35,106 bases of DNA from IMG/VR virus record IMGVR_UViG_3300027278_000024, positions 1 through 35,106 of that record; one strand, given 5' to 3'. The position numbers and the translations under genes are program-made. The DNA is from a virus (lineage: Duplodnaviria; Caudoviricetes). Below, piece after piece: positions 6,948-30,623 of the stretch (position 1 is its first letter; the number at the start of each line of letters is the position of its first letter). The notes beneath the pieces are model-generated. The model searched no databases. It was given only the letters and a program-made list of their open reading frames with translations, and was not told where the DNA came from.

Positions 6948-7553
6948 ATGGCTGATCTCGAATATCGAGCGAAGAAGAATCTTTCTCTGCGTTGCCAAAG
7001 CGGCGAGCCTGTCTCGCTGGTCGGATACGCGTCAACCTTTGACAGCCCATACGAGGTTGAGGGCATGATCGAGACTGTGCATCGAAGCGCGTTCGATCGA
7101 ACGCTGCGCGAGATGCCTGATGTCTTCGCGCTTGTCTCGCACGACCCGGGTCGGGTGGTTGGCCGAACGACGAACGGCTCGCTGGCCCTTCGATCCGATG
7201 ACAACGGCCTGCATGTCACCCTGACTCCGATCGACACGCAGGAGGGTCGCGATCTCGCTACTCTCGTGCGAACCGGAACGATCGACTCGATGTCGTTCGG
7301 CTTCATCGTGAAGGATGACAAGATCGAGATGCGCGATGGTCGCATGCACAGGCAGATCAGGGATCTGGAACTGCACGAGGTGAGTTGCGTTGCGTTCCCT
7401 GCCAACAGTCAGGCTCGAATCTCTGCTCGATCGAAGCAGCGAGCCGACGAGATCGCGCGGAGCGCGGTCTCGCAGATCAGACTCGAACGGATGCGGAGGC
7501 TTCTGATCCTGCCGATCCACAACATTGGAGGCTCGACGAATGGCACTGTCTAA
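6948..7553 (+). CDS. HK97-family prohead protease (peptidase S78)
   Basis: GYASTF, SHD (catalytic His), MSFGF (catalytic Ser), LHEVSCVAFPA. Confidence 0.95.
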   Translation: MADLEYRAKKNLSLRCQSGEPVSLVGYASTFDSPYEVEGMIETVHRSAFDRTLREMPDVFALVSHDPGRVVGRTTNGSLALRSDDNGLHVTLTPIDTQEGRDLATLVRTGTIDSMSFGFIVKDDKIEMRDGRMHRQIRDLELHEVSCVAFPANSQARISARSKQRADEIARSAVSQIRLERMRRLLILPIHNIGGSTNGTV

Positions 7554-8634
7554 CTCGAACAACGGGCAACTGGCTCCGCGCACGATCGCTGAGGCTGCGT
7601 GGACGCGGCTCTACGATTCGTTCCCGCTCAACCTTGTGAGTCGCGCTACTGGCCCGCGCGGTTTCATTCAGCCAGCGAGCACGAACGCTGCTGATGGGAC
7701 GATTCAGTATCTGTCCGAGGCAACGGCTCAGGGAGCAGAGAGCACTTTTCAGCCGACGATCAATCAGAAGTCTGATGATCTTGAGACCTACCGCGCGAGC
7801 GTTCTCGTGTCGAATCAACTGCTGGCGGACTCGCGCGTGCTGGAGTTCATCGGCGCGCGTCTCGCGGGTCAGATCATCGAGCGCGTCGCGCGTGATACCG
7901 TCCTCGCAATCGCCACAGCCCTCAAAGATGCAAGTCGATTCTCTGAGTACAATCACTTCGATGTCGGAGCGGTTGGCGTGACTGGTACTGCCAAGATCGA
8001 GGATCACACCGGGTTCAAGGCTCTGTCCAACCTGTCGAATACCTACCGCTCTCGCGCTTGCTGGGTGTTCTCTCAGACTGGTCTCCAGAACTGGGGCACG
8101 CAGGAAGGTCGAATCAACCTCGTTACTCTCGGAGTTCGTCAGGAAGATGGCGCGTATCGTCGCGTCATCGGAGAGCCGATGAGTTCGGAGTCGCTGCTTG
8201 CTGGCGGTGGCGGTGGCGGTGGCGGTGGCGGCGGCGGAGGTGGTTTTGTCGGCGGTGGCGGCGGTGGTGGTATTGGCGGTGGTGCTGGCGGCAATCTGGG
8301 CGGTGGCGCAGAGCAGGCAGGCAGCGGCCTGACGCTCGAAAGTCGAGCGAAGTTGGTGTCGAAGACTCCGACGACCGATCAGTGGCACACCGCGTATCTC
8401 GGATGCCCCGTCTACACATCGACTGGCCTCTCTGCGACTCACAACGAACTCGATGGAGTGTGGATGCTTGTCGCAGACATGTCTGCGTATCTGCACTTCG
8501 ATCAGCCGCTGTCTGTGCGGCTGGACACTGAGAGCCGTATCGCACAAAATCAGACTGTTATCCATGCCGCGTACCGTGCGGGTGGAGCGTTCATGGAACC
8601 GACAGCGGGATGGGCAATCGTCTCACCCGCGTAA
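7540..8634 (+). CDS. Divergent HK97-fold capsid-like protein with poly-Gly insertion
   Basis: GGAGG RBS. Collinear blocks with the MCP: VSNQLLAD/VSNELLAD, YRSRACWV/YRANAKWV, YLGCPV/LLGYPV, AQNQT/ANNQT. Confidence 0.75.
   Translation: MALSNSNNGQLAPRTIAEAAWTRLYDSFPLNLVSRATGPRGFIQPASTNAADGTIQYLSEATAQGAESTFQPTINQKSDDLETYRASVLVSNQLLADSRVLEFIGARLAGQIIERVARDTVLAIATALKDASRFSEYNHFDVGAVGVTGTAKIEDHTGFKALSNLSNTYRSRACWVFSQTGLQNWGTQEGRINLVTLGVRQEDGAYRRVIGEPMSSESLLAGGGGGGGGGGGGGGFVGGGGGGGIGGGAGGNLGGGAEQAGSGLTLESRAKLVSKTPTTDQWHTAYLGCPVYTSTGLSATHNELDGVWMLVADMSAYLHFDQPLSVRLDTESRIAQNQTVIHAAYRAGGAFMEPTAGWAIVSPA
8203..8308 (+). repeat. GGC/GGT low-complexity tract encoding poly-Gly
   Basis: ggcggt iterations encoding GGGGGGGGGGGGGGFVGGGGGGGIGGGAGGNLGGG. 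Confidence 0.9.
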
Positions 8635-8653
8635 CCCTTAGAGGAGCACTGTG

Positions 8654-9991
8654 ATGGATCAGCCGATGGAAAAGCCCGCAAGTGGCAAGGAGATGAAGAA
8701 GATGAGCATTCGTGAGATCACCGACGAGATCGGTCGTCTCTATGAGGGCATGAAGTCCCTCGTGGACGAGTCGCAGAAGGAAGGCGAGCCTCTCGCGCAG
8801 GAGAAGGAAGAGCAGTACAGCCGCATGAATGGCCGTCTGACCGACCTCATCAAGATGCGCGATCAGCACTACCGCCTGCTCGACGCTCAGGCTGCGGCCA
8901 CTCGCTCGATGGATCGCAAGGTTGAGGATGCGAGCCGCGCTCGTGACCTGACCGCGAAGCAGAGCGACAATCTCCGCAACTTCACTGGCAGTGAGGAGTA
9001 TCGCAGCGCGTTCTCGAAGTACCTGCGCGTTGGTGCTAACGAACTGACCATTGACGAGCAGCGCGCCATGAGCGAAGGAACCGACTCCGCTGGTGGGTAT
9101 CTGCCCGCTACCGAGTTCCTCTCGACTCTGATCGAGCAGCGTTGGCAGGCCAATGCGATGCGTCAGGTCGCGAATGTCATTCCGCTGGGCACTTTCAACA
9201 CCGAAGTGGTGTATGAGAGCGCGTTCGCAACTGCCGCGTACTCGAACGAGGCCGCTGACTTCTCCAGCAGCGAGAGCAACGGAACCTTCGCCAAGTTGAC
9301 TCTGAAGCCGTACACCCTGCGCGTGTTCACGAAGGTGAGCAACGAACTGCTGGCGGACGCTCCGAGCCGTGGCCCGTCGTTCAATGTCGAGAGCATCATC
9401 GCCCGTCAGTTCGGTCGCGTGATGGGCGAGAAGGAAGAGGCGGCGTTCCTGACGGGCAGCGGCAGCGCACAGCCCAAGGGCATTCTGTCCTACACCTCCG
9501 GCACTGGAACGACGATCAGTCCTGTGACCGCATCCGCTACGACGAGCGTCACGATTCTGGAACTGGCTCAGGTGGTCGCTGCGCTTCCTCGCAAGTATCG
9601 TGCGAATGCGAAGTGGGTGATGAACGACGCGACCTTCTGGAAGATCCGTCAGTTGCTCCAGACGCAGAGTGGCACGAATGTGGGCATCTCCTACGCGCCG
9701 TTCGCATGGAGCCTTGGCGATGGTCGTCTTCAGGACGGCGAGCCGGATCGTCTGCTGGGCTACCCGGTCGTGTGCGCCAACGGCGGCAACTCGGTCGCGG
9801 CTGGCAACATCGTGGCAGCGTTCGGTGACTTCAACTACTTCCACATCGGCGAGCGTGAAGGCGTGTCGATCAAGACCGCTCGCGAGGCGTTCCTCGCGAA
9901 CAACCAGACGGGCTACTTTGGCTTCGCCCGTCACGACTCGCAGGCTTCGGTGCTGGATGCGTTCCGCTACCTGAAGATGGCCGCTTCGTGA
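8654..9991 (+). CDS. Major capsid protein, HK97 family, with N-terminal delta (scaffold) domain
   Basis: GAGGAG RBS, coiled-coil N-terminus, EQR-AMSEGTDSAGGYLP junction, VSNELLAD, FLTGSGSAQPKGI, LLGYPV, FGDF. Confidence 0.96.
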   Translation: MDQPMEKPASGKEMKKMSIREITDEIGRLYEGMKSLVDESQKEGEPLAQEKEEQYSRMNGRLTDLIKMRDQHYRLLDAQAAATRSMDRKVEDASRARDLTAKQSDNLRNFTGSEEYRSAFSKYLRVGANELTIDEQRAMSEGTDSAGGYLPATEFLSTLIEQRWQANAMRQVANVIPLGTFNTEVVYESAFATAAYSNEAADFSSSESNGTFAKLTLKPYTLRVFTKVSNELLADAPSRGPSFNVESIIARQFGRVMGEKEEAAFLTGSGSAQPKGILSYTSGTGTTISPVTASATTSVTILELAQVVAALPRKYRANAKWVMNDATFWKIRQLLQTQSGTNVGISYAPFAWSLGDGRLQDGEPDRLLGYPVVCANGGNSVAAGNIVAAFGDFNYFHIGEREGVSIKTAREAFLANNQTGYFGFARHDSQASVLDAFRYLKMAAS

Positions 9992-11746: not shown

Positions 11747-12153
11747 CACTGATCTCTAAGGCTGTCAGGGCTGTGCTCGCTGGCAACACGGCTGTCGCCA
11801 GCGTGGTTTCTACGCGGATCTCTCCAGAGGCGCGCCAGCAGGGTGATGCGCTTCCGTGCATCATTTATGCAATCAGCGAGGACGAGAGTGCTCCGACGCT
11901 CTCTGGCTCTGGCGGATTCCGCAAGGCTCAGATCGAGGTCATGGCTGTTGCGGACTCGGCTGCGACCGCTGCGGATGTACACGAGAAGGCTCGTACTGCC
12001 TTGCACAAGTTCGTTGGAACCAGCGGTGGCGTTGCCGTGATGCACTCTCTACATTTGCGGAGCGTGACGAGTTACCAGTCGCCACAGGCGGGTGAAACTG
12101 CGGGAGCGTTCCTGCACACGGGCATCTACTCGATCATGTACTCGGAGACCTGA
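11743..12153 (+). CDS. Tail terminator (DUF3168-like)
   Basis: V..RI.P...Q...LPCIIY..IS pattern; lies just before the tail tube genes. Confidence 0.8.
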   Translation: MTLISKAVRAVLAGNTAVASVVSTRISPEARQQGDALPCIIYAISEDESAPTLSGSGGFRKAQIEVMAVADSAATAADVHEKARTALHKFVGTSGGVAVMHSLHLRSVTSYQSPQAGETAGAFLHTGIYSIMYSET

Positions 12154-12157
12154 ACCA

Positions 12158-12538
12158 ATGGCCGTATCTAGTCAAGGAATCACTCTCAGCACGGGCACGC
12201 TCGTCGGCGAGATCACTGCGATCTCCTTCAGTGGTGTCTCGGTCGCGGAGATTGATGTGACCTCAATCAGCGACACTGTGAAGAAGTATGTCACGGGCAC
12301 TCTCGATGGAGGTACGGTGGAAATCACCGCCAACTTCACGACTGCTCCGACGATGCCTTCGCAGGGCGCGGAAACTCCGTCATCGTTTGGTATCACCATC
12401 CCGACCACTACGCCAACCGTGCTTTCGATCACGGCGTTTGTCGTCGGCATGTCGATCGACGCGTCCGTCGATCAGCAGGTCGTCGTCAAGTACACCCTCC
12501 GCATCTCGAACAGCGTGCTCGGCACGACCAACGCCTAA
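12158..12538 (+). CDS. Tail tube protein, paralogue 1 (126 aa)
   Basis: EIDVT..D..KKYVTG..DGGTV motif typical of siphophage tube proteins. Confidence 0.85.
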   Translation: MAVSSQGITLSTGTLVGEITAISFSGVSVAEIDVTSISDTVKKYVTGTLDGGTVEITANFTTAPTMPSQGAETPSSFGITIPTTTPTVLSITAFVVGMSIDASVDQQVVVKYTLRISNSVLGTTNA

Positions 12539-12550
12539 AGGAGAACCGAC

Positions 12551-12931
12551 ATGGCTCTTTCTAGTCAAGGAACACTCTTTACGACTGGTGGTGTGGTTGG
12601 TGAAGTCACCGCCATCTCCGTCAGTGGCGTGTCGGTCGCGGAGATTGATGTCACCGCGCTCGCTGATACGGTCAAGAAGTATGTGACCGGAACTCTCGAC
12701 GGCGGTACGGTGGAGATCACCGCAAACTTCACTGCGGCTCCAACTATGCCTCAGCATGGTGCTGAAACTCCGTCGCAGTTCACGATCACATGGGGCGGAA
12801 GTGTCGCTCAGACCTTCTATGCCTTCATCGTCGGCATGTCGATCGACGCATCTGTCGATCAGCAGGTCGTCGTCAAGTACACACTGCGAGTCAGTCATCA
12901 GATCATGGGAGTCGGCTCCGCACCCGCGTGA
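12551..12931 (+). CDS. Tail tube protein, paralogue 2 (126 aa)
   Basis: AAGGAG RBS; close paralogue of 12158-12538. Confidence 0.85.
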   Translation: MALSSQGTLFTTGGVVGEVTAISVSGVSVAEIDVTALADTVKKYVTGTLDGGTVEITANFTAAPTMPQHGAETPSQFTITWGGSVAQTFYAFIVGMSIDASVDQQVVVKYTLRVSHQIMGVGSAPA

Positions 12932-19745: not shown

Positions 19746-21109
19746 CGCTGCACAGAAGCAACTGCTGCTGTGCATTGGAACCGCCATGCACGGTGTGCGA
19801 TCTTCCGTGGAGGTGCACGGACGACTGCGAAGTTTGTGGGCCGCGTGACAGAACGATGCCTCTTCAAGAGGGATCAACGATGAAGATGAAGATTCAGATG
19901 GTGACATCCCGAGTGTTCGGAGGTGGCACGCTTCCCGGTGGATGCGATTGCACGGTACTTGTCTTGATGCCATCAAGCACAACGATGGTGCTTGAGTGCG
20001 ATCCCAATGCAGGACACATCTGGGTCTCGCAATCGCAGCAGGAGATAGAACTGCCATACGCAGACACATCGACTGCATGCGATGCAGCATTCTGCTGTTC
20101 AACGATGCAGATGGACTGTGATGTGGTGGTGCGGCAAAACTGCTGGGTTGACGGAGCGGTTGAGGTAGCGTTCGTGCCTTCGTCCGACTACGCGGAAGAC
20201 ATTGCTGCGTCGAATGAGTGCATCGAGTATTACAGGCCATACACCTTCAGGGGGACTACGAGGCTTGCGTACCGGATGTCGATTCGGCTCGAAGACATTA
20301 CTGCTACTGGCGCGCCATCATGCAAGTATCTGTGGCAGCGCACAGGCACTGCGACGCTCTACGGTAGTTGGAATGGAACGCAGACAGACGACACGGTTGG
20401 CATCTTTGACTATGAACCAGTCATTCCGCTTCAAGACTGGAGCGCGGAGGCGATTGGGTTGACATCGGGTTCGACTGCTGAAGAGCGATACAACACGGCG
20501 TACAGGTACACAGACTGGTGCACAACGCGAGGCAACTACATCCGCGTTGACTGGGTGAATCAATACGCCTACAGCCGAGACGAATGCAAGTGCGGCGAGT
20601 CACGGGAGGGTGAATGCGATCTCAGCATCGGCCAGACAACCGGGCCGACTTACTATGGACTTGATCTTCAGCCCGGATTGAATAACGCATGCAGGTGTCA
20701 ATACAGTGCCTACACCGCAGCAATCAAGTTCTGTTCTGGGGCAACAGTCACATACACCGGATCGGGGAATACGGGAACGAAAACGGTGTCTCAGTTGTGC
20801 GTGGATGACTACTGGACTCTCGACCCGGGGCCGTTCGACACCACATCAACATGGACTCGATACCCCGGTTCAATGTCGTTTCAATACACGGCTGGACAGG
20901 CGGAAGTGTTCACCTTCGTTGGGCCATCTGAGTCGCTGGTCAAGCCTTCCTCGTATCAGTGTTACCCATGCCTTGATATCTGCGACAGGAACGCAGGCGA
21001 AGAATGCTGTGAACAAAAGGTCTGCACTCCGACATGCGCCCTCACAACTATCTCCTACACCCTGACGAGCACGGTCGCAATATCGGCTGTCTCGTGTCCC
21101 GTGTACTGA
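19742..21109 (+). CDS. Cysteine-rich protein, probably virion-associated
   Basis: 455-aa ORF, TTG start overlapping the upstream stop (start uncertain); CCC, CxxC and CC clusters. Confidence 0.65.
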   Translation: MTLHRSNCCCALEPPCTVCDLPWRCTDDCEVCGPRDRTMPLQEGSTMKMKIQMVTSRVFGGGTLPGGCDCTVLVLMPSSTTMVLECDPNAGHIWVSQSQQEIELPYADTSTACDAAFCCSTMQMDCDVVVRQNCWVDGAVEVAFVPSSDYAEDIAASNECIEYYRPYTFRGTTRLAYRMSIRLEDITATGAPSCKYLWQRTGTATLYGSWNGTQTDDTVGIFDYEPVIPLQDWSAEAIGLTSGSTAEERYNTAYRYTDWCTTRGNYIRVDWVNQYAYSRDECKCGESREGECDLSIGQTTGPTYYGLDLQPGLNNACRCQYSAYTAAIKFCSGATVTYTGSGNTGTKTVSQLCVDDYWTLDPGPFDTTSTWTRYPGSMSFQYTAGQAEVFTFVGPSESLVKPSSYQCYPCLDICDRNAGEECCEQKVCTPTCALTTISYTLTSTVAISAVSCPVY

Positions 21110-21119
21110 GGATCGAAAC

Positions 21120-21545
21120 ATGGAAGAACACCGTTCGTACCTTCGTCAAGCCGCCGAGTACATGCGAGCGGAGGCCAGCACTGTCACTCGTGGCGAGACT
21201 GCTTCCGAGACGCGTGAGGCTCGCGTGACTGCGTGCCAAGGCTGCGATAGGCGCAAGGACGCGTCTGGAGATCTGCAAGACTCGCTGGGGTTCTGCGGAG
21301 CATGCGGATGCTCTGGAAAGCGCGCTGCACTGTCCGTCAAAGTCACCATGCCGGGTGCGAACTGCCCACTGGGCAAGTGGCCTGCCGAGGTGAAGGTGTG
21401 CGGAGTCGCTGGCCCCGGCGAGGCACTTCATGCGGCTCGCACTGCGGTGTCATCCGTTGCCATGACGGTAGCGGAGCAGTTGAAAAAACTGAGAGACTTG
21501 AACAGTCGGGCTGCTGGTGGCAACGGACAGCCTCCATCCGCGTGA
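21120..21545 (+). CDS. Small Cys-motif protein (CxxC...CxxCxC...CP.GKW)
   Basis: GAGGA RBS; putative metal-binding Cys pattern. Confidence 0.7.
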   Translation: MEEHRSYLRQAAEYMRAEASTVTRGETASETREARVTACQGCDRRKDASGDLQDSLGFCGACGCSGKRAALSVKVTMPGANCPLGKWPAEVKVCGVAGPGEALHAARTAVSSVAMTVAEQLKKLRDLNSRAAGGNGQPPSA

Positions 21546-21559
21546 CTAGTCTGGGTGAC

Positions 21560-21823
21560 ATGAACGGAGACGGCACGGCTTCAAGGACGGTAGCCGCGTG
21601 GGTGCAGGTCGCTGTATTCGCGCTCGGGCTTGGCGGTCTCGCTGTGTCGATCGGTCGCAAGGACGCGACGATCGACCAGCACTCTGGTCAACTCACTGAA
21701 CTGAAGTCCATCACGGCTGATCTCGTCCGCGCTCAACTGAGCCTGAGTGGAAACGATCAGGTGACAGCGCAGCGACTTCAAGAACTGGAGCGTCGCCTTG
21801 CCACGCTTGAAGCCAAGCGATAA
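21560..21823 (+). CDS. Single-TM coiled-coil membrane protein (possible lysis accessory)
   Basis: Hydrophobic VAAWVQVAVFALGLGGLAVSI followed by a coiled coil; start could instead be GTG at 21542. Confidence 0.6.
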   Translation: MNGDGTASRTVAAWVQVAVFALGLGGLAVSIGRKDATIDQHSGQLTELKSITADLVRAQLSLSGNDQVTAQRLQELERRLATLEAKR

Positions 21824-22733
21824 GCAGAAGCCGCTTCCGTTTCGCGTCGTTGAGAAGTCGCGGAACATCCATATCGTCGAGATGGAGGCAAGCGCGCGCG
21901 GCGGTTGGGAGCAATGGTATCTGCTCCGATCGGACGCGCACCATGACAACCCGCACAGCGACCACGATCTTGAGCGCAAGCACCTTCGCGAGTGCGAGCA
22001 ACGCAATGCTGGGTGGATTGATTTTGGTGATGCCTTCTGTGCTATGGCGGGCAAAGCAGATCCACGACGCGCCAAGCACGGCGTGACTCGCGACGAGCAC
22101 GCAATCGCGAACGATTACTTCGACTCTCTGGTGAGACACGCAGCGGACTTCTATGCGCCACACGCGCGCAGGTGTGTCCTGCTGTGTCGCGGAAATCACG
22201 AGACAGGAGTTCTCAAGAATCAGGAAACGGATCTCACTGAGCGGCTCGCCGAACGGCTCAGTGAGCGACTCGGATCTCCGGTGATGACTGGTGGCTACGG
22301 TGGCTTCATCCAGTTCAGAACGAAGGTAGCCAACACCGTGCACACTCTGACGATGGCCTACTTTCACGGCTCGGGTGGTGGCGGCATGATGACCTTCGAT
22401 ACCCTTCGAGTTCGTCGGCAAGCGTCGTTTCAACCCGACGCTGATGTGTTGGTGTGCGGTCATGTGCACGAGCGATGGTGGCTCCAGACGGCTCGCTATC
22501 GACTGCGGACGAACAACGGCATGTACCGAGTGACTGTCGAGCCGCAGCACCATGTGCGAACTGGCACTTACAAGCAGGAGCACGGCGACTCATTCGGCGG
22601 ATGGGCTGTCGAAAAGGGAATGCCGCCGAAGCCGATTGGTGCGATCTGGATGCGCCTCTATATGAAGCACATCGAGAAGGTGAATGGCATCTCCATCTGG
22701 AGACTCGAATGCGAGTTCCACGAGGCATCCTGA
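21798..22733 (+). CDS. Calcineurin-like metallophosphoesterase
   Basis: SDAH, FGD, GNHE, HG and GHVH motifs in canonical order. Confidence 0.88.
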   Translation: MPRLKPSDKQKPLPFRVVEKSRNIHIVEMEASARGGWEQWYLLRSDAHHDNPHSDHDLERKHLRECEQRNAGWIDFGDAFCAMAGKADPRRAKHGVTRDEHAIANDYFDSLVRHAADFYAPHARRCVLLCRGNHETGVLKNQETDLTERLAERLSERLGSPVMTGGYGGFIQFRTKVANTVHTLTMAYFHGSGGGGMMTFDTLRVRRQASFQPDADVLVCGHVHERWWLQTARYRLRTNNGMYRVTVEPQHHVRTGTYKQEHGDSFGGWAVEKGMPPKPIGAIWMRLYMKHIEKVNGISIWRLECEFHEAS

Positions 22734-23020
22734 GTATCCGAGTTCGGTTCGGTGATTGCACATACACGATCAGGTGGATGCCCGCCAAGCACATGGGCAA
22801 GGACTGGGGCCGCTGCTACCCGCGCAGAGGCAAGCGCGGAGTGATCGAGATTCGCCAGTCGCTCAGTGAGAAGAACATGATGGACACTCTGATTCACGAA
22901 TGCCTGCACGCTGCGAACTGGTGCGCTGACGAAGAGTTCGTTGACGCTACTGCTTGCAGCATCCAGAAGGCTCTCTACGCTGCTGGATGGCGGCGAACCT
23001 CAACAAAGGAGAAGAGATGA
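22709..23020 (+). CDS. Small zincin-like (HExxH) protein
   Basis: GGAG RBS, ATG at 22709, WGRC...IEI...DTLIHECLHA...EEFV. Confidence 0.7.
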   Translation: MRVPRGILSIRVRFGDCTYTIRWMPAKHMGKDWGRCYPRRGKRGVIEIRQSLSEKNMMDTLIHECLHAANWCADEEFVDATACSIQKALYAAGWRRTSTKEKR

Positions 23021-23205
23021 ACAATCAATCGAGTTGGCGCACGAGTCTTGCGGGTCTTGCAGCGATCATGGTTGCTGTCGGTGCGGCTGTGAAGGCGTTC
23101 ACGGACAACGATCCTCTGACGGTTCCAGACATCGGAGCATGCGTCGCAGCAGTGATCGCTGGCATCGGTCTGATTCTCGCGCGCGACAACAAGAGCGCAC
23201 AGTGA
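23017..23205 (+). CDS. Holin-like two-TM protein
   Basis: AAGGAG RBS; SWRTSLAG...GIGLILARD with two hydrophobic helices. Confidence 0.7.
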   Translation: MNNQSSWRTSLAGLAAIMVAVGAAVKAFTDNDPLTVPDIGACVAAVIAGIGLILARDNKSAQ

Positions 23206-23375
23206 CGCAGTGGCTCGCGTCGATGTGCGCGGCAATCGTCGCGCTGTTGATTGAGCGATACGGATCTCTGTTCGGCAAGACGATTGCCAAGGATGCAACA
23301 CATGACACGAGCACTCTTCGTCGCGCTGGCTCTCGCATTCGCAAGTGGATGCAATCGCGTCACACTCGTCACTGA
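23202..23375 (+). CDS. Possible i-spanin-like membrane protein
   Basis: GTGA overlap with the upstream stop, N-terminal hydrophobic stretch, overlaps the downstream lipoprotein gene. Confidence 0.45.
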   Translation: MTQWLASMCAAIVALLIERYGSLFGKTIAKDATHDTSTLRRAGSRIRKWMQSRHTRH

Positions 23376-23529
23376 GGGAAGCCCAATCCGAATCGGGCCA
23401 GACGCGCGCGCGCGCGTGTATGTGCTGACGGATGATGGGTGGACGCTCTCACCAGATGCGGTCGAGATACCAGAGGGCTGGTACTGCGTTCCGCCGTCAT
23501 TCGTTGACGATCCTACGGCTGCACAGTGA
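23302..23529 (+). CDS. Lipoprotein, o-spanin (Rz1)-like
   Basis: Signal peptide MTRALFVALALAFASG-C (lipobox), Pro-rich mature part, AAGGA RBS. Confidence 0.65.
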   Translation: MTRALFVALALAFASGCNRVTLVTEGSPIRIGPDARARVYVLTDDGWTLSPDAVEIPEGWYCVPPSFVDDPTAAQ

Positions 23530-23550
23530 CTGAACCTGCGGCCCTGTGGC

Positions 23551-23583
23551 CCCGCGTTTCCCATGCAGGAAACGCGGGCTTTT
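23551..23583 (+). terminator. Intrinsic terminator ending the late operon
   Basis: 11-bp stem cccgcgtttcc/ggaaacgcggg followed by ctttt. Confidence 0.75.
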
Positions 23584-23590
23584 GCATGGG

Positions 23591-23619
23591 TTGACCCTAC
23601 CTTCCCCATCGGGTAATAT
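23591..23619 (+). promoter_or_regulatory. Sigma70-type promoter
   Basis: TTGACC (23591-96), 17-nt spacer, TAATAT (23614-19), directly after a terminator. Confidence 0.8.
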
Positions 23620-23625
23620 CCGTGT

Positions 23626-24114
23626 GTCAGGTTCTTTGACAAGTGAGGCACTGGAACGGCAAACGAGCCGCGCGCCCCGAACGGCGCATCGCGGCTCGGC
23701 GAACGGGACGACCGACACGACAGGTCGAATAAGGCGACAACGCTGAAGACGCTTCCCGAAACGATCACCAAGCCGCTCTCTCCCGGACAGACTTTGTGCG
23801 AGTCGATCACCTAACGGAGTCCACTGAGAGAGCAGATCATCGAGCCGCCAGAAACTCGGAAGCCCAAGAGACCGAGCCTGCCTCACGACGACAAGCAAGC
23901 GCGAGTCCGACAGACTCAGTAAAGCCAGCACCTCTAGCGAAGAGCAACGACGAGGCCAGCATGGTGGGAACGGTCGGGACGAAGCGACGAACAGAGCGAC
24001 GAGCATCAGCAAGTGGGACGACCCACCTATGCCAGACCAGTGTGAGTGTGACGCACGAGGCGAGGCGCGGTGAAGTGCTCGGAGCGGAGAACCTGAAGCG
24101 CAACGAACGCAAGA
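23626..24114 (+). ncRNA. Putative large structured non-coding RNA / leader
   Basis: No credible ORF. Long-range stem gtgaggca 23643-50 / tgcctcac 23879-86 encloses several nested helices, with A-rich linkers. Confidence 0.6.
23631..23642 (+). promoter_or_regulatory. boxA-like (NusB/NusE) antitermination site
   Basis: GTTCTTTGACAA, 10/12 identical to rrn boxA GCTCTTTAACAA, a few nt after the predicted start site. Confidence 0.65.
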
Positions 24115-24210
24115 AACAGAACAAGCCACGCCGACCTTCGGTCAGGAGGGTCGGCTGGCCTGCGCTGTTGCAGGAGACACTGACTCGAACGCGGCGCACG
24201 CCGCAAGGAG
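24115..24210 (+). repeat. Structured intergenic element, copy 1
   Basis: aacag-5nt-gcca-c-stem-tggc; cctgc-gctgtt-gcagg; gcggc/gccgc hairpin; AAGGAG. Confidence 0.85.
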
Positions 24211-24216
24211 AACGCC

Positions 24217-24447
24217 ATGACGAAGGCCAAGAAGGTCACGAAGGTCAACACGAAGAAGTTCAAGAAGGTCAAGGTTCGCCTCACTGGCACAGACGGCAAC
24301 GCCTTCGCTGTGCTCGGCAAGGTTGGCAGAGCACTCAAGGCCGCTGGCGCGACGGCGAAGGAGGTCAACGCCTTCTACAAGGAAGCGATGGCTGGCGACT
24401 ACCTCACGCTGCTGGCGACGGCGATGAAGTGGGTCACTGTCACCTGA
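24217..24447 (+). CDS. Hypothetical phage protein (LTGTDGNAF...GDY motif)
   Basis: Strong RBS, genome-typical codons. Confidence 0.85.
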   Translation: MTKAKKVTKVNTKKFKKVKVRLTGTDGNAFAVLGKVGRALKAAGATAKEVNAFYKEAMAGDYLTLLATAMKWVTVT

Positions 24448-24538
24448 CGGGACGAGACACGCACGCTCGCTCGCGCGAGCGTGCTGTCCCGCATCGTCGC
24501 GGGTTCACTACCTCGAACGCGGCGCATGCCGCAAGGAG
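24445..24538 (+). repeat. Structured intergenic element, copy 2
   Basis: tgacgg-5nt-gaca-c-gcacgctcgc/gcgagcgtgc-tgtc; cccgc-atcgtc-gcggg; gcggc/gccgc; AAGGAG. Confidence 0.9.
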
Positions 24539-24544
24539 TTCACT

Positions 24545-24877
24545 ATGCGATTCGTGAGGAACCAAAACCGAAAGCAGCAAGAGCGCGTGCTGCTCGACAC
24601 CGTTGTTCGCAAGGCTGCGGAAGTCGGGTTCAAGGTGACGGCTGTGTACGACGGAGAGGAGTGGGTGAAGTTCGAGACCACGCCCACGCCGGAAGAACTG
24701 GCTCGTGTGGCCTTCGCAACGGACGACGCTCAGGTGCAGTTCAACGGCAAGCAGTGGGTGTTCTTCGTCTGGGGCAACGGTGTCGATGCCGCAACTGACT
24801 GGGGCGTTGGCAACGAGGCGTTCGCGAAGGCCGTCGAGGAGGCGACGCAACAGGTGTACGAGGCGTTCGCGCCTTGA
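24545..24877 (+). CDS. Hypothetical protein
   Basis: RBS supplied by the repeat; typical codons. Confidence 0.82.
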   Translation: MRFVRNQNRKQQERVLLDTVVRKAAEVGFKVTAVYDGEEWVKFETTPTPEELARVAFATDDAQVQFNGKQWVFFVWGNGVDAATDWGVGNEAFAKAVEEATQQVYEAFAP

Positions 24878-24969
24878 CGGGACTCGCCACGCACGCTCGC
24901 TCACGCGAGCGTGCTGGCCTGCATCGTCGCAGGATTCACTACCTCGAACGCGGCGCACGCCGCAAGGAG
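24875..24969 (+). repeat. Structured intergenic element, copy 3
   Basis: Same architecture; gcca/tggc and cctgc-atcgtc-gcagg. Confidence 0.9.
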
Positions 24970-24976
24970 TTCACAC

Positions 24977-25327
24977 ATGGCACGGCTCTACGCTCTCATC
25001 AACGAATGCGCTCGCAAGACCACGCCGACCGCTCGCGCGCACTACCAAGTGGCGGCGACTGTGAAGAACTGGGAGTACGCGGTGGAGGCTCGCATCGACC
25101 GCGCGAAGACAGAGGCTCAGGATCAGTTGACGCTGCGCGTCACCAACCTGCGGACGCGCGAGACGGTTGAGGTCGCAGCGGACGAGATCGCGAAGGTGTT
25201 CGCTGCTGCGAAGGCGAAGCAGCAGCGCGCTGCGAAGAAGGCGGCGAAGCGCGCCGCCGAGGAGGCTGCACTGACCCGAGCCGTCATCGAGGAGCCGTGG
25301 CTGGCTGCTCAGGTGCTGGCTGCTTGA
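24977..25327 (+). CDS. Hypothetical protein
   Basis: ATG at 24977 after AAGGAG. Confidence 0.8.
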   Translation: MARLYALINECARKTTPTARAHYQVAATVKNWEYAVEARIDRAKTEAQDQLTLRVTNLRTRETVEVAADEIAKVFAAAKAKQQRAAKKAAKRAAEEAALTRAVIEEPWLAAQVLAA

Positions 25328-25424
25328 CGGTCGCACGCCAGCGCAAACATTCAAGTTTCTTGAATCCTTATGCCTGCATCGTCGCAGGAGACACTGACTC
25401 GAACGCGGCTCATGCCGCAAGGAG
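25325..25424 (+). repeat. Structured intergenic element, copy 4 (divergent first stem)
   Basis: tgacggt; attcaag/cttgaat stem; cctgc-atcgtc-gcagg; gcggc/gccgc; AAGGAG. Confidence 0.85.
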
Positions 25425-25430
25425 TTCACT

Positions 25431-25775
25431 ATGGCTCTCTACTGGGATCTCACTCGCATCAAGAACTACAAGGTCGTGGCGATCAATCCAGAAACGCTCC
25501 ACCCGTTTCAGACGGTTGAGGAACTGATCTACCTCACCATGAAGATCGGACTTGCCGGGGTGACGGAGAAGAATGTCGAAGAGTGGAAGTGGCGACTCGC
25601 CTTCCTGTGGAACACCGGGGGGAACGACTTCTACACGAAGTTCAACACGGAGTTCCTGAAGGGGCTGGTCGGACTCACAACGAATGCGACGCAACTCACT
25701 CGCGCTCAGTGGATCAAGAAGTGGCTGAAGAATCAGACGCTGGAGGCTGACTACCAAGCGCGCAAGTGGGAGTAA
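25431..25775 (+). CDS. Hypothetical protein
   Basis: RBS and typical codons. Confidence 0.82.
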   Translation: MALYWDLTRIKNYKVVAINPETLHPFQTVEELIYLTMKIGLAGVTEKNVEEWKWRLAFLWNTGGNDFYTKFNTEFLKGLVGLTTNATQLTRAQWIKKWLKNQTLEADYQARKWE

Positions 25776-25787
25776 TGGATGAACCCG

Positions 25788-25868
25788 TAACGGCTTCGGC
25801 TTACCGCTCTCTTCGGAGAGCGGGACGGCCTGCTCCGTTGCAGGAGACACTGACCTCAAGCAAAAGGA
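25788..25868 (+). repeat. Structured intergenic element, copy 5 (lacks the last hairpin)
   Basis: aacgg; ccgctctc-ttcg-gagagcgg; cctgc-tccgtt-gcagg; agacactgac. Confidence 0.85.
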
Positions 25869-25874
25869 AACACC

Positions 25875-26096
25875 ATGACCACACCTCTTCCGATCCTTCG
25901 CGATGGCCTTGAGTGGAAGCCCGGGACTTGCATGTCTTGCGGTGAAGTCGGCCATGTCTTGCACGACCGCGACGCAACCGTGGAAACGCACGCTGGCGAC
26001 GGTGATGGATGCTGTCCCGCATGCTGCACCGCTCTGTGGACTCTGATGACGAATGACTTCACCGAGCGAGTGGAAGCACCGTGGCGTGAATACTGA
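25875..26096 (+). CDS. Small zinc-finger-like protein (CxxC...CCxxC)
   Basis: AAAGGA RBS; CMSC and CPAC motifs. Confidence 0.7.
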   Translation: MTTPLPILRDGLEWKPGTCMSCGEVGHVLHDRDATVETHAGDGDGCCPACCTALWTLMTNDFTERVEAPWREY

Positions 26097-26131
26097 ACTT
26101 TCGAGGCACAGCCTCAGATTGGAGAACGCAA

Positions 26132-26359
26132 ATGGAACGCAACACTGAATGCAAGCGCGCTAGCCGTGATCGTGCACGCAACATCCGCAACCTGAAGAAG
26201 TACGGATACGAGGCGTGCAAGATCTGCTGGGAGACCTGTGTGATCCGTGGAGAAGGCCCGACCATGCAGTCGATCAACTCTGGCCTGCACTTCAACGCGA
26301 CATCTGCCGCAATCGCGGCCTACGCCTTCGCGCTGCGCGAGGCCGGAGTGAGGAACTGA
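26132..26359 (+). CDS. Hypothetical protein
   Basis: GGAG RBS preceded by a gaggc/gcctc hairpin. Confidence 0.7.
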   Translation: MERNTECKRASRDRARNIRNLKKYGYEACKICWETCVIRGEGPTMQSINSGLHFNATSAAIAAYAFALREAGVRN

Positions 26360-26450
26360 CGGCTCGCGCCCCACCGCTCTCTTCGGAGAGCGGGACGGCC
26401 TGCGCTGTTGCAGGAGTTACTACCTCGAACGCGGCTCATGCCGCAAGGAG
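26357..26450 (+). repeat. Structured intergenic element, copy 6
   Basis: tgacggc; cUUCGg stem; cctgc-gctgtt-gcagg; gcggc/gccgc; AAGGAG. Confidence 0.9.
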
Positions 26451-26456
26451 TCGAAC

Positions 26457-26885
26457 ATGGCGCGTTACACGCCGACATACTGGAACTGCAAGGGCGAACT
26501 TCAGGAGGTGTACGACATGCTGCACAAGGCTATCGTGCCTGAGACTGGTCGCGCGCCAACGCCGCACGGCAACGCGCTGCGGCAAGTCGCGAATCTGTAT
26601 CACGAGGTCTACAACAACGGCGGCGGCAACGCTGCTGGGCAGAACGGTTTTGGTCTCAACCAGAGGTACAAGGATGCGATCGCTGCTGTCGTCGAAGGCG
26701 CAGCACTGGAGCCGGAGGATGCAAAGGTGCTGCGCCGCGCTCTTGTGCGCGGAGACGAGATGTGCAAGGGCGAGATGCCGAAGACAGCCCGACGCTTGGA
26801 TGAAGTTGTGACGAAGGTCGTTCGACACGCGCTGGCTCAGACGCTGGCGACGATCAAGCGACCCAAGAACAACCGCGAACTGTGA
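26457..26885 (+). CDS. Hypothetical protein (YWNCKG...LY..VYNNG.GN)
   Basis: RBS and typical codons. Confidence 0.82.
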   Translation: MARYTPTYWNCKGELQEVYDMLHKAIVPETGRAPTPHGNALRQVANLYHEVYNNGGGNAAGQNGFGLNQRYKDAIAAVVEGAALEPEDAKVLRRALVRGDEMCKGEMPKTARRLDEVVTKVVRHALAQTLATIKRPKNNREL

Positions 26886-26901
26886 AAGAAAGGAGACAGC
26901 C

Positions 26902-27081
26902 ATGACTGCCAAACTGATCGCATACGAGAACGGTGAACTGAACGAAGAGGAGACTCTGAATCTCTTCGAGGAGTTGGTTGCGACTGGCCTCGCGTGGACG
27001 CTGCAAGGTGCATACGGTCGCACCGCGCAAGCGTTGCTGGAGGCTGGCTTGATCGGCCTGCGAGCAGCAGGCGTGAACTGA
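26902..27081 (+). CDS. Small conserved phage protein, 59 aa (IAYENGEL...LVATGLAWTLQGAYGRTA); absent from the ORF track
   Basis: AAAGGAG RBS, ATG at 26902, TGA at 27079-81. Confidence 0.85.
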   Translation: MTAKLIAYENGELNEEETLNLFEELVATGLAWTLQGAYGRTAQALLEAGLIGLRAAGVN

Positions 27082-27172
27082 CGGCACAAGACACGCACGC
27101 TCGCGCATGCGAGCGTGCTGTCCTGCATCGTCGCAGGATTCACTCACAAGAACGCCGCGAAGCGGCAAGGAG
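27079..27172 (+). repeat. Structured intergenic element, copy 7
   Basis: gaca/tgtc; cctgc-atcgtc-gcagg; last hairpin flipped to gccgc-gaa-gcggc; AAGGAG. Confidence 0.9.
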
Positions 27173-27178
27173 AGCACT

Positions 27179-27385
27179 ATGAAGAAGAAGGCAAAGATCT
27201 GGCTCACGCACAACGGCGACCCGTATGTCCGAGGGTTCACTGGTACTGAAGAGGCCGATGATGGACGCACCTTCTACCGTGGAGATCTGGGAGTGCAGAC
27301 GCGCGATTGGTGGCGCGCGTATGCACGAGCGAACGGTTACGAACTCGGCGAGGTGCGCCCGTTCAAGAAGGCGCGCCGCGCGTAA
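27179..27385 (+). CDS. Hypothetical protein
   Basis: ATG at 27179 after AAGGAG. Confidence 0.78.
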   Translation: MKKKAKIWLTHNGDPYVRGFTGTEEADDGRTFYRGDLGVQTRDWWRAYARANGYELGEVRPFKKARRA

Positions 27386-27420
27386 GCACACGCCGCTCAT
27401 GCGGCAGAAAGGTCACTGAC

Positions 27421-27681
27421 ATGAAGACGATTCGGATCATCGGACTCGAACGACTGATGGAGGTGTTGGACGACGACGGCTCGCTGGCTGTTCGCGAGCA
27501 GTCTGAGGTGGCAGAACTGTTAGGCATCTCGCGCCACGCAGTCTCGTATCACGAACGCTCGGCGAAGGAGAAGATCGCGCACGCGATCCGAGAACTGGCT
27601 GCTGGAATGAGGCTGGAGCATGGCGGCGTAGCCGCGCGTGTGCTGGCTCGCTCCGGTCGCAGGAAGGCTGGTGCTCGATGA
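27421..27681 (+). CDS. HTH DNA-binding protein (sigma region 4-like)
   Basis: QSEVAELLGISRHAVSYHERSAKEKI; GAAAGG RBS. Confidence 0.75.
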   Translation: MKTIRIIGLERLMEVLDDDGSLAVREQSEVAELLGISRHAVSYHERSAKEKIAHAIRELAAGMRLEHGGVAARVLARSGRRKAGAR

Positions 27682-28160
27682 CAGCCGGAGAGGATCGGTG
27701 TCTCAAGCAGGGCATCCTGCTCGGGCACGCCATCGCTGTTGTGTTTCAGATGGGTGGAGGAGAGGAGATGCAGACCGGATGGTCGTTCGTCTCTTACGGA
27801 GAGACTCCGATGCGCGCGAGCGATCGGATCCTTCGTGTCGGGCCGCTTCGATCATTCGTGTCTGTGTCTGGCGTTGAGTTCTTCGGAGTTGCTGGAGGCG
27901 GCGTTCAGGAACTCCTTGATCGCATGGCTGGCTCTGATGAGTTCAGGAACGAGCGCGATGATGCTGATGGAGTGCGAGACCTGTCGTGCGATCTCGCCTT
28001 CATGCGCGGCTTCGGTCTCACCCTGAGTGAGTACGGCATTCGACCAACGGTCGAGCAGCAGCGAATCGAAGGCTCGAACACCACAACATATCTGCTCGCA
28101 GCAGTGAAGCACGAGCAGCGAAAGGAGGTGCGTCATGCCGATGGGCCGCGCGCACATTGA
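27678..28160 (+). CDS. Hypothetical protein
   Basis: ATGA overlap with the upstream gene. Confidence 0.65.
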   Translation: MTAGEDRCLKQGILLGHAIAVVFQMGGGEEMQTGWSFVSYGETPMRASDRILRVGPLRSFVSVSGVEFFGVAGGGVQELLDRMAGSDEFRNERDDADGVRDLSCDLAFMRGFGLTLSEYGIRPTVEQQRIEGSNTTTYLLAAVKHEQRKEVRHADGPRAH

Positions 28161-28428
28161 GTTCATCAGATACTGCGTGAGATCGAAGGCCCGTCGAGAC
28201 ATGAAGGCCAAGCCGCACTACGCGGCAGACGCGCTTCGTCGTCTTCGGATTGCCGACGACTGTGATCGCATCATGCAGATGCTGTCACGGAACTGGCGAG
28301 CCGAGCCTCACGAGGTGGCGACGATGCTTGGATGGCAACCTCCACTCGTGCTGTTCGAGGGAAGCCTGAACGATGCCGCGCAGCAATGGCTGGATGCGAG
28401 GCATGCGGACTGGAGAGGGTCGCCGTGA
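28135..28428 (+). CDS. Hypothetical protein
   Basis: AAAGGAGGT RBS before ATG at 28135. Confidence 0.7.
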   Translation: MPMGRAHIEFIRYCVRSKARRDMKAKPHYAADALRRLRIADDCDRIMQMLSRNWRAEPHEVATMLGWQPPLVLFEGSLNDAAQQWLDARHADWRGSP

Positions 28429-28526
28429 CGGAACGCGCCACGCACGCTCGCTCACGCGAGCGTGCTGGCCTGTGCCGTGTGGTGCAGGTGCTTGATTCAA
28501 CACGATGCCAAGCGCATCAGAAAGGA
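28426..28526 (+). repeat. Structured intergenic element, copy 8 (divergent 3' half)
   Basis: tgacgg-5nt-gcca-c-gcacgctcgc/gcgagcgtgc-tggc; cctgt...gcagg; gatgc/gcatc; AAAGGA. Confidence 0.8.
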
Positions 28527-28533
28527 CACTGCT

Positions 28534-29412
28534 ATGACAGTTGCAAAGTGGAATGAAGTGAAGGTCGGAGACTCGCGCCTCGTGCTGCACTGCGGAGCAC
28601 ACGCGGTCACGGAGAACGAGGTGTTCGCGTCGATCACGCCGGAGGCCACGGAGTCGCACTTCCCGATCCCGCACTCGATGCTGCTCCAGAGCGTGACGAA
28701 CACGCTCTCGGATCTGGGTTGGGCCGTTCGCGAATCGGCGCACGCGCTGATGAATGACGGCGCGCGATACTTCGGTCTGCTCGCGATCCGACCGAAGGTC
28801 GAGTCGTCTGTGCTCGCCATCTCCGGTGACGGCACATTCGACTGGGTGATCGGTCTCCGCAACGCGCACGACAAGGCGTTCAGCGCGGACGGGATGCTCG
28901 GCAATCGCGTGTTCGTGTGCGACAACCTCGCGTTCAGCGGAAGGGCTGGAAGCGTGTTTCACTTCGCTCGCAAGCACACGCGCTACATCGAGCGCGATCT
29001 GCCGGGACTGGTTGCTGGGTCGTTCGGCAACATGGCGCGCGCGATGCACGACGAGAAGCGTCGTGTCGAGGTGTATCGAGCGCACGAGATCGGAGACGAC
29101 GATCAGGTGCACGACTTTATGATTCGTGCGATGGATCGTCGTGCGATCACTCCGCAGCAACTTCCGCATGTGCTGAAGGAGTGGCGGCGCGATGACGGCC
29201 CGGGTGGTCTGGGCGAAGCCGCTCGTGAGCGAGACCCGGCCTTCGAGGCTCGCACTGCTTGGAGGCTGCTGAACTGCTTCACCGAGGTGGAGAAGCAGCG
29301 GCCATCGCCCGTCGCGAGCCCCGCTCGCAACGCGCGTCTGGTTGGTCTGCTCGATGGCCTCGTCGGCCTGTCGAGCAGCGCGGATACGGTGATCGACGCT
29401 GAGGTCGCCTGA
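28534..29412 (+). CDS. DUF932-like phage/plasmid protein
   Basis: TESHFPIPH, GLRNAHD, RVFVCDN, RKHT and TAWRLLNCFTE motifs. Confidence 0.75.
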   Translation: MTVAKWNEVKVGDSRLVLHCGAHAVTENEVFASITPEATESHFPIPHSMLLQSVTNTLSDLGWAVRESAHALMNDGARYFGLLAIRPKVESSVLAISGDGTFDWVIGLRNAHDKAFSADGMLGNRVFVCDNLAFSGRAGSVFHFARKHTRYIERDLPGLVAGSFGNMARAMHDEKRRVEVYRAHEIGDDDQVHDFMIRAMDRRAITPQQLPHVLKEWRRDDGPGGLGEAARERDPAFEARTAWRLLNCFTEVEKQRPSPVASPARNARLVGLLDGLVGLSSSADTVIDAEVA

Positions 29413-29416
29413 TACA

Positions 29417-29464
29417 GAACAAGGCGGAGGTGCGGTGGGTCATCCACGCACCTCCGCCTGTTCG
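29417..29464 (+). other. Long hairpin (terminator or processing site)
   Basis: aggcggaggtgc...gcacctccgcct inverted repeat; no clear U tract. Confidence 0.5.
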
Positions 29465-29520
29465 TACCGCTCCGAACAACGGCGTTCGGAGTCTAGCCAC
29501 TAACAACACGAAGGAGAACT

Positions 29521-29721
29521 ATGAACACTGAAATGGTCACGACGCGCGATGTGGCTGATGCGTATGGAGTCTCGATCCGTCGCATCAATCAGATCGCGAA
29601 CAAGCGAGGCATCGAGCCTCGCAAGGCAGGGCATGTCAACCTGTGGACAGCGCGTCAGGCTCGGCTGCTGAAGCCAGAGCGATCGGCGCATCTGTCGAAG
29701 CGGATTGGAGGCGCGCGATGA
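29521..29721 (+). CDS. Small HTH (excisionase/MerR-like) DNA-binding protein
   Basis: TTRDVADAYGVSIRRINQIA; AAGGAG RBS. Confidence 0.78.
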   Translation: MNTEMVTTRDVADAYGVSIRRINQIANKRGIEPRKAGHVNLWTARQARLLKPERSAHLSKRIGGAR

Positions 29722-30623
29722 TTACAGACAAGCAGCGTGAGGCTCGGATGAAGTCGCTGGGATCGAGCGACGCGCCAGTGATTCTCGGCGTTGATCCATT
29801 CCGAACGCCATACGATCTCTGGCTACAGAAGACATCGCGAGTTCCACAGACGAAGGAGAACGACGCGATGCGGCTTGGAAGCGTGCTGGAGATTCCGTTG
29901 CTGCAACTGGCTGGCGAGCGCATCGGCGCGCGTGTGGTCAGACCGAGCAGCGCATTCGTAGGTTGCTACCCGTACCTCAAGGCCAACATTGACGGCATGG
30001 TTGGAGAGGCGAAGCGAGGCTCGGACATCGTTGAGGTGAAGACGACGAGCAGCACCGAGGGTTGGGGAACTGAGGGAACCGATCAGGTTCCTGATCGCGT
30101 GCGAGTGCAGGTGGCGTTCCAGATGTCGTGCGCGAGCGCGAATCTGGCGCACATCGCCTGCCTCACTGGAGCCTTCGGTCTTCAGTTCAAGATGTACAGG
30201 ATTCCGTATGACGCGGACTTCTGTGGGTATGTGATGGAACGGTGTGACGCATGGTGGCGCAAGCACATCGAGGGCGGAGAGCCGCCGCCAGAGCGAGGAA
30301 CGCTCGACCTGCTCAAGCAGGTGCGCCGCACGGATGAGGCGGTGAACTTGGATCCGGCACTGTTCGAGGAAGAGCGTCGGCTCGCATCGGCACTGGCAGA
30401 TGCGGAGAAGGCGCATGAGGCTGCGAAGGCGCGGCTCGTCACTGCACTTGGATCTGCTCGTCGCGGATTCGGTGGTCAGCACTCGATCAGCGTGATCGAG
30501 GTCGAGACTGACAGATTCGATCGCAAGGCATTCGAGGCGGAGCACGCCGATCTGGCTCGACAGTATGTCGTGCCGTCGTCGTACTCTCGCATCGACATTC
30601 GCACCAAGAAGGAGAAGCCATGA
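29718..30623 (+). CDS. YqaJ / lambda-exonuclease family recombination nuclease
   Basis: LGSSDAPVILGVDPF.TPYDLW..K, G..LE, ANIDG, EVKT and QVAFQM motifs. Confidence 0.93.
   Translation: MITDKQREARMKSLGSSDAPVILGVDPFRTPYDLWLQKTSRVPQTKENDAMRLGSVLEIPLLQLAGERIGARVVRPSSAFVGCYPYLKANIDGMVGEAKRGSDIVEVKTTSSTEGWGTEGTDQVPDRVRVQVAFQMSCASANLAHIACLTGAFGLQFKMYRIPYDADFCGYVMERCDAWWRKHIEGGEPPPERGTLDLLKQVRRTDEAVNLDPALFEEERRLASALADAEKAHEAAKARLVTALGSARRGFGGQHSISVIEVETDRFDRKAFEAEHADLARQYVVPSSYSRIDIRTKKEKP

Follow-up and report, generated by a model that had tools for sequence, protein, structure and literature searches.

Large ornate phage RNAs are, to our knowledge, few, and we know of none with an established function. 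The described large RNAs GOLLD, ROOL and OLE have reported lengths that run from 577 and 659 to over 800 nt (PMC12286853), and GOLLD and ROOL often lie near tRNA islands and carry conserved pseudoknots or kissing loops. RNA-based antiterminators are represented by HK022 put, described as a ~65-nt double hairpin, and by B. subtilis EAR (PMC8632103), and the early RNase III sites of T7, such as R1.1, are reported as long internal-loop hairpins of about two turns between early genes (PMC6121014). The leader of ribosomal RNA (rrn) operons combines a boxB-boxA-boxC arrangement, a Nus/SuhB/S4 complex, a leader-trailer helix and release by RNase III. Published boxA consensus sequences are UGCUCUUUAACA and AUGAUCUUUGAAA, boxA likewise precedes suhB and CRISPR operons, and boxA by itself is reported to prompt an rrn complex that hinders intrinsic and Rho termination (PMC13753749). 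In rrn complexes the 5' end is reported to be tethered and folding to be chaperoned, mainly via boxA, with boxB dispensable (PMC8632103), and for 16S rRNA the pairing of leader with trailer is described as essential (PMC10250234).

Here, we describe a real and apparently undescribed family of large phage RNAs with an rRNA-like expression signal. The window, i.e., the whole 35,106-base virus record that was analyzed, derives from an HK97-like siphophage as judged by gene content (family profile scans of ORFs). Terminase, portal, protease, capsid, and tail genes fill the window to about 21 kb and are followed by small genes, and the early region from 24217 contains DUF932, YqaJ, Erf, ParB-like, and helicase genes. 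The sequencing runs that contain the stretch are marine, with four of these marked as a possible source, and freshwater, and two of them (X6 and X7) span all 30 bins of 21000-30000. Among cultured phages, the RNA region had no DNA match other than 23 chance matches of at most 36 nt each, and the best terminase matches showed 37-38% identity. Several features elsewhere in the window were also recorded. A second, weakly capsid-like ORF precedes the major capsid gene (7525-8634), two neighboring ORFs at 12092-12931 each match tail-tube profiles, and the portal ORF (2238-5177, 979 aa) matches portal profiles over its first ~420 residues only, and the long remainder is unannotated. A metallophosphoesterase-like gene (824 relatives) and a SprT-like gene occupy the expected lysis-enzyme position (21798-23020), and no classical endolysin was recognized among the 48 ORFs scanned.

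Table 1. Features of the leader and early region (positions are those of the window).
Feature	Position	Strand	Description
Intrinsic-terminator-like hairpin	23551..23586	+	11-bp stem, T-rich tail; ends the late/lysis-region transcript just 5' of the promoter
Sigma70-type promoter, TTGACC-17-TAATAT	23591..23619	+	TTGACC at 23591, TAATAT at 23614; predicted +1 near 23626
Structured RNA	23626..24126	+	~470-nt body (23626-24097), then an A-rich tail up to the first repeat; covariation, fold, RNA-run contig
P0 5' arm	23627..23637	+	Pairs with 24086-24096; includes the first 7 nt of boxA
boxA	23631..23642	+	Core TCTTTGACA; same in all homologues
Domain 1	23643..23886	+	P1 (23643-50/23879-86 and 23651-54/23848-51), P2, conserved hairpin, two more arms, one window-specific hairpin
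Domain 1 conserved hairpin	23664-23698	+	CCGA loop
Domain 2	23900..23986	+	Long irregular hairpin; conserved GA/GAA internal loop; holds the most conserved core
Domain 2 core	23931-55	+	GC-GAAGA-GC pentaloop plus AACGAC
Domain 3	24000..24081	+	Irregular hairpin stacking on P0; window-specific side hairpin 24013-26
P0 3' arm	24086..24096	+	Partner of 23627-37; 11/11 pairs, probability 0.7-1.0
First repeat element	24115..24216	+	Irregular long hairpin at 24115-24169 with a short alternative at 24159-24174; a further hairpin and the Shine-Dalgarno follow; predicted site of processing
First early gene	24217..24447	+	76 aa, phrog_1933, unknown function; first credible ATG 24217
Seven further repeats, each before early genes	24445..28533 (about 24445, 24875, 25325, 25790, 26358, 27079, 28426)	+	Repeat search, folding

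An earlier sequence-only reading had reported the promoter, a boxA, and ~590 nt up to the first credible ATG, and its coordinates are correct; the boxA-like 12-mer starts at 23631 and the ATG lies at 24217 (Table 1). The promoter scored 9/12, and the four such sites found against 2.8±1.8 expected do not exceed chance on their own. Between 22000 and 35106, it was the sole promoter-like site flagged on the + strand. In 4 of 4 relatives inspected by eye, a -10-like hexamer lies 12-17 nt 5' of boxA, at sites that the promoter scan did not flag. Inverted repeats adjoin or span the promoter region (window 23560-23590; lineage B, L060:5904-5933) as a possible operator, and small HTH-like genes occur at 27421-27681 (weak Pfam HTH and sigma70_r4 matches) and 29521-29721.

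The boxA core is present in the window as a single exact copy, and the downstream + strand lacks even a one-mismatch copy. Among 301 Planctomycetota genomes, 7 have the core 90-291 nt 5' of the 16S start (control 1), and among 81 genomes from the phylum to which a Rhodobacteraceae MAG belongs, 10 have it 60-300 nt 5' of 16S (control 0); these are counts and not frequencies, as the genomes searched may be without 16S genes. The rrn leader of one Planctomycetaceae MAG lacks the core. By sequence comparison, the core is a genuine rrn boxA variant; it occurs in both phyla tried and does not name the host.

A search with a neighboring gene returned 10 viral loci, and 7 non-identical IMG/VR contigs besides that of the window have a homologous leader in the same place. 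All 8 matches to a boxA-anchored pattern belong to this clade, comprising the seven contigs and one identical to the window, and in a metagenome scan 3 of 18 matches were genuine homologues and the other 15 arose by chance. The homologous RNA is ~390 nt long in the relatives and ~470 nt in the window. Three lineages can be distinguished: W (the window), A (L004=L010, L005, L006, L049, and L007=L040), and B (L008 and L011). W and A are ~55% identical in global alignment, and the window terminase shares 69% identity with those of three relatives. The gene 3' of the RNA changes among lineages and the RNA stays.

Covariation was assessed on six lineage A and B sequences, excluding the window. RNAalifold gave 121 pairs, of which 12 weak or uninformative ones were removed to leave 109. 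Double changes occurred in 23 of the 109 pairs, compared with 6.6±2.0 in shuffled controls (0/500 shuffles) and 1-3 in slid controls; as the structure was derived from the same six related sequences, the shuffle figure is not a probability, relatedness alone can beat the control, and much of the signal stems from the one lineage-B sequence included. The double changes were spread over 12 of 15 helices, 98.5% of cells across the 109 pairs were paired, and every one-sided change was to or from G-U on the + strand. When the window helices were placed by eye on the structure of the relatives, they fitted the same three domains with further compensations. A sequence profile built without the window found its best match at window positions 23890-24009 (E 2e-4), and a window-free covariance model of domain 2 did so at 23888-24002 (E 5e-4, rough calibration). 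No more distant homologue turned up in further loci, many of which may not reach the equivalent position: a profile gave 7 matches on 95 phosphoesterase-linked loci, all in the known clade, and the covariance model gave nothing credible on 97 other loci (best E 0.85, inside a coding region). A repeat-motif scan (29/64 parts) returned 122 loci, 5 of which had RNA matches (four known contigs and L248). One further candidate, L027, was rejected as a chance match. These alignments give the structure good support within a small clade.

The helices named in the sequence-only reading are all fully complementary at the positions given, and most are well paired in the predicted ensemble. Pairing was 0.75-1.0 for 23643-50/23879-86, 23704-08/23754-58, 23709-13/23723-27, 23775-82/23826-33, 23855-59/23872-76, and 24013-17/24022-26, and for 8 of 9 pairs of 23664-72/23690-98, of which the innermost pair reached 0.15. 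The exception is gagtc/gactc, which is weakly paired (0.23), competes with the conserved helix 23900-11/23973-86 (mostly ~0.7), and is probably wrong. The ctcgg/ccgag (23855-76) and gtggg/cccac (24013-26) hairpins are, by eye, insertions specific to the window. That reading missed the closing helix P0 and likewise the conserved core of domain 2. P0 starts at the predicted transcription start and closes the RNA in the window, L004, L007, and L008; the relatives keep it with a different sequence, and the homologous helix shows double changes in 4 of 10 pairs. The folding-energy test that had been proposed was passed only marginally (z -1.7 to -2.3). The z-score was -2.26 for 23625-24216, including the first repeat hairpin, and -1.69 for the body (23626-24097), for which 6 of 100 shuffles were equally good; once the 5' arm of P0 was omitted, it was -0.4. 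Three relatives refolded with full ends gave -2.28, -1.89, and -1.86. The structure is established by covariation and not by energy alone. Among the unpaired columns of alignment A3, no conserved complementary run of at least 4 was found that could form a pseudoknot or kissing loop. The GAAGA pentaloop may resemble lambda boxB, and readings of parts of the RNA as a hairpin ribozyme or kink-turn were rejected by eye against their consensus.

The unpaired parts of the RNA are also conserved. Between lineages A and B, 73% of unpaired columns (116/159) are identical, versus 38-42% at the four-fold sites of the neighboring gene, and over four sequences 65% are invariant, versus 29% at such sites. 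The A-rich linkers noted in the sequence-only reading were confirmed, with A making up 51% of unpaired positions versus 28% overall, and A accounts for 48 of the 103 invariant unpaired columns in the alignment. Two substitutions among the sequencing runs touch the fold: T23744C in X19 and X7 converts G-U to G-C within a small hairpin, and three runs have T23935C, so that the core motif can vary at its first base. It is conceivable that the fold simply shields the leader against Rho and nucleases while stabilizing the 5' end of the early mRNA, without any specific partner. The modest folding energy, the varying domain sizes with extra hairpins in the window, and the lack of a detected pseudoknot would agree with such a passive structure. 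However, a single 5' hairpin would suffice for this purpose, the unpaired bases are conserved far beyond neutral sites, and the GA/GAA loop and 16-nt core persist between lineages that are ~55% identical. We therefore regard a passive structure as improbable.

Three open frames (253, 210, and 120 aa) overlap the RNA region, which could in principle encode a protein, in ORF 23796-24557 or in minus-strand ORFs, or act as an element at the DNA level. This explanation is largely refuted, and we give it almost no weight. An extra A after 23851 in the near-identical X19, X6, and X7 shifts the 253-aa frame as well as the two spanning minus-strand frames, neither PHROG nor Pfam gave a match for the 253- and 210-aa frames, and no Shine-Dalgarno lies 5' of 23796. 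When the tested frames were compared with five relatives, the best tblastn E was 0.016 and lay outside the RNA, versus 1e-52 or better for a control gene. The preference of one-sided changes for G-U on the + strand also argues against coding. The translation of ORF 23796-24557, which had been named as one observation that would count against an RNA, is contradicted by a frame shifted in three strains and the lack of a homologue in five relatives.

Two lake RNA runs (X19 and X20) were compared over 29 kb. X19 yielded one 475-nt contig at 23653-24116, nearly exactly on the RNA, and its 11 loose letters correspond by eye to the next window bases up to 24126, i.e., the 5' arm of the first repeat. 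Elsewhere, X19 gave capsid (8577-8910) and tail-tube (12434-12569) pieces plus two short foreign pieces. The X20 pieces fall at 24174-24351, 5791-6067, and 8278-8565, with none on the RNA itself. Depths in these runs are 2-4 (4.2 for the X19 contigs), the contigs give neither ends nor strand, DNA carry-over is possible, and X19 was chosen for containing the stretch; lack of cover in X20 or elsewhere in X19 proves nothing. The X19 contig is a weak hint of RNA expression.

A search of Rfam 15 found no match to the RNA or elsewhere in the window above cut-off; the hits at E ≤10 sit on the repeats or in coding DNA, with scores that fall far short of it. The GOLLD, ROOL, and OLE models were unmatched in the window, L006, L007, and L008, and the window contains no tRNA or tmRNA genes. 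The RNA is not GOLLD, ROOL, or OLE, because it has no Rfam match, no tRNA, and no conserved pseudoknot, and membership of put, which the sequence-only reading had named beside GOLLD and ROOL, is likewise not supported. The central proposal of that reading, a new large structured RNA, stands on same-place homologues, covariation, conserved loops, a non-coding frame, and the missing Rfam match. We found no description of the RNA in the literature, where a search combining boxA, bacteriophage, structured RNA, and covariation gave nothing. Four supplement files of Fremin 2023 (PMC10690425) gave no match by short motif or contig id, and a fragment of the RNA may still be among the candidates of that study.

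Comparable layouts were noted in unrelated phages. In L209 (IMGVR_UViG_3300031539_000114, 3250-4030, + strand), the boxA core is followed by ~750 nt of apparently non-coding paired sequence and by the same hairpin and Shine-Dalgarno motif as in the window, and the covariance model of the window-clade RNA has no match there. Within this leader, 3783-3869 is twister-sister-like (24.9 bits, below the cut-off of 34; E 0.01). In L172 (3200-4030, minus-strand numbering), two copies of this hairpin and Shine-Dalgarno motif lie behind hairpin-rich intergenic DNA. The sub-threshold match in the boxA-led leader of L209, together with the multi-domain fold and invariant internal loops of the window RNA, would be compatible with control or processing of the early transcript by a ribozyme or riboswitch. 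Against this, no ribozyme or riboswitch model matched the RNA at E 10 or three relatives at E 1, the downstream gene varies, and there is no obvious expression platform. A catalytic or ligand-sensing RNA is thus very unlikely.

The eight repeats downstream of the RNA are ~100 nt each. The suggestion that they work together with the RNA is plausible. The first repeat starts directly behind the RNA in every lineage, forms a long hairpin, and was flagged as intrinsic-terminator-like in the two relatives scanned (L059:9322-9347 and L060:6349-6376), where its U-rich tail is able to pair upstream or downstream as well. In the window, the terminator scan found no terminator behind the RNA and no terminator-like site on the + strand downstream. 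The predicted geometry (10-bp stem, 1-nt bulge, 4-bp stem, internal loop, and basal helix) is found in most copies of five phages, and the repeat near 25325 departs from it. The basal five pairs of the long hairpin covary between copies. The 3' strand of the basal helix doubles as the loop of the alternative short hairpin, which gives two mutually exclusive folds, and the short hairpin, if formed after a cut, could in this model cap the downstream mRNA. We rejected an H-type pseudoknot for the repeats, because its third loop would be left with zero bases. The repeats also flank single genes that relatives shuffle, and a joint in X7 (25322->24873) falls at two repeats, which suggests recombination cassettes. 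We take these repeat-flanked genes to resemble T4-type PeSL cassettes.

Our preferred explanation, to which we assign an evenly balanced probability, is an rRNA-style unit that releases a stable RNA at the first repeat, the RNA then likely acting early in infection as a host-protein decoy or scaffold. Host sigma70 polymerase would start near 23626, at the site present in the sequence, and boxA, by the identity of its motif, would load NusB-S10, NusA, NusG, and SuhB. As in rRNA synthesis, the Nus complex would shield the ~590 untranslated bases from Rho and keep the 5' end near the polymerase. The three domains would then fold and the ends pair as P0, as covariation indicates. The finished RNA would bury half of boxA, in which case boxA would serve mainly the structured RNA. 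RNase III would cut the first repeat hairpin, or partial termination would occur there in the relatives, and the RNA would be freed; the later repeats would divide the early mRNA into single genes in a T7-like manner. Finally, the conserved A-rich loops would form a tertiary structure or a protein site. The conserved loops alone suggest that a decoy or scaffold role is likely.

It is also possible, if in our estimate somewhat doubtful, that the leader acts in cis, boxA and the body riding the polymerase in rrn fashion, perhaps with help of the put or EAR kind, through the 11-kb early operon, with any freed RNA a by-product. The RNA is transcribed first from the sole flagged + strand site, boxA alone is reported to prompt a termination-hindering complex (PMC13753749), and the terminator-like first repeat of two relatives would offer a target. 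However, boxA would suffice for this without 390-470 nt and conserved loops, and put is given as only ~65 nt (PMC8632103). Once the RNA is complete, P0 would hide half of boxA, cleavage at the first repeat would break the tether with no second boxA to restore it, and the window has no + strand terminator-like site downstream. The free RNA is favored over a cis antiterminator because boxA alone needs no conserved body of ~400 nt, because of the burial of boxA by P0, and because of the loss of the tether. The two readings overlap, in that boxA probably helps early transcription in both.

A broader and rather unlikely conjecture is that infection by many unrelated phages begins with an rRNA-style cassette of promoter, boxA, large RNA closing on itself, and processing hairpin, by which host ribosome-biogenesis machinery would mass-produce a folded RNA effector. 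The window RNA would be the founding family member, acting alone on a host target, e.g., RNA polymerase, a Nus factor, or an RNA-sensing defense protein. 

Independently of that conjecture, the locus suggests a borrowing of the rRNA complex for antitermination and folding by phages via boxA alone, with no N-like protein identified here, and as the same layout occurs in the unrelated L209, the answer may apply widely. The new fold is compact (390-470 nt), has clear ends, and occurs as natural variants in three lineages, which makes it accessible to work in vitro.

Compared with known systems, the repeats are like the early RNase III sites of T7 in their long internal-loop hairpins between early genes. 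Unlike R1.1 as reported (PMC6121014), they recur as sequence repeats, include a short alternative hairpin, have a second hairpin before the Shine-Dalgarno, and lie behind a large RNA. HK022 put (PMC8632103) is likewise a structured RNA that heads a phage early operon, whereas the phage RNA is 6-7 times longer, closed at its ends, and equipped with boxA, and it has no Rfam match to put or EAR. GOLLD, ROOL, and OLE are similarly described as large, multi-domain RNAs whose A-rich loops are conserved and whose function is unknown; of these, GOLLD and ROOL are phage-encoded, and all three exceed the 390-470 nt found here (PMC12286853). In contrast to GOLLD and ROOL, the phage RNA has neither a tRNA island nor a conserved pseudoknot or kissing loop, and in contrast to all three it is co-transcribed with the early operon behind boxA; by analogy, it may work as they do. 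With the rrn operon leader it shares an identical boxA core, a long untranslated structured RNA with paired ends, and likely release at a long hairpin. The phage boxA lies ~5 nt after the predicted +1, which leaves no room for boxB, and no boxC was seen by eye. Whereas rRNA follows the rrn leader, the phage RNA heads phage protein genes, and its closing helix includes boxA itself.
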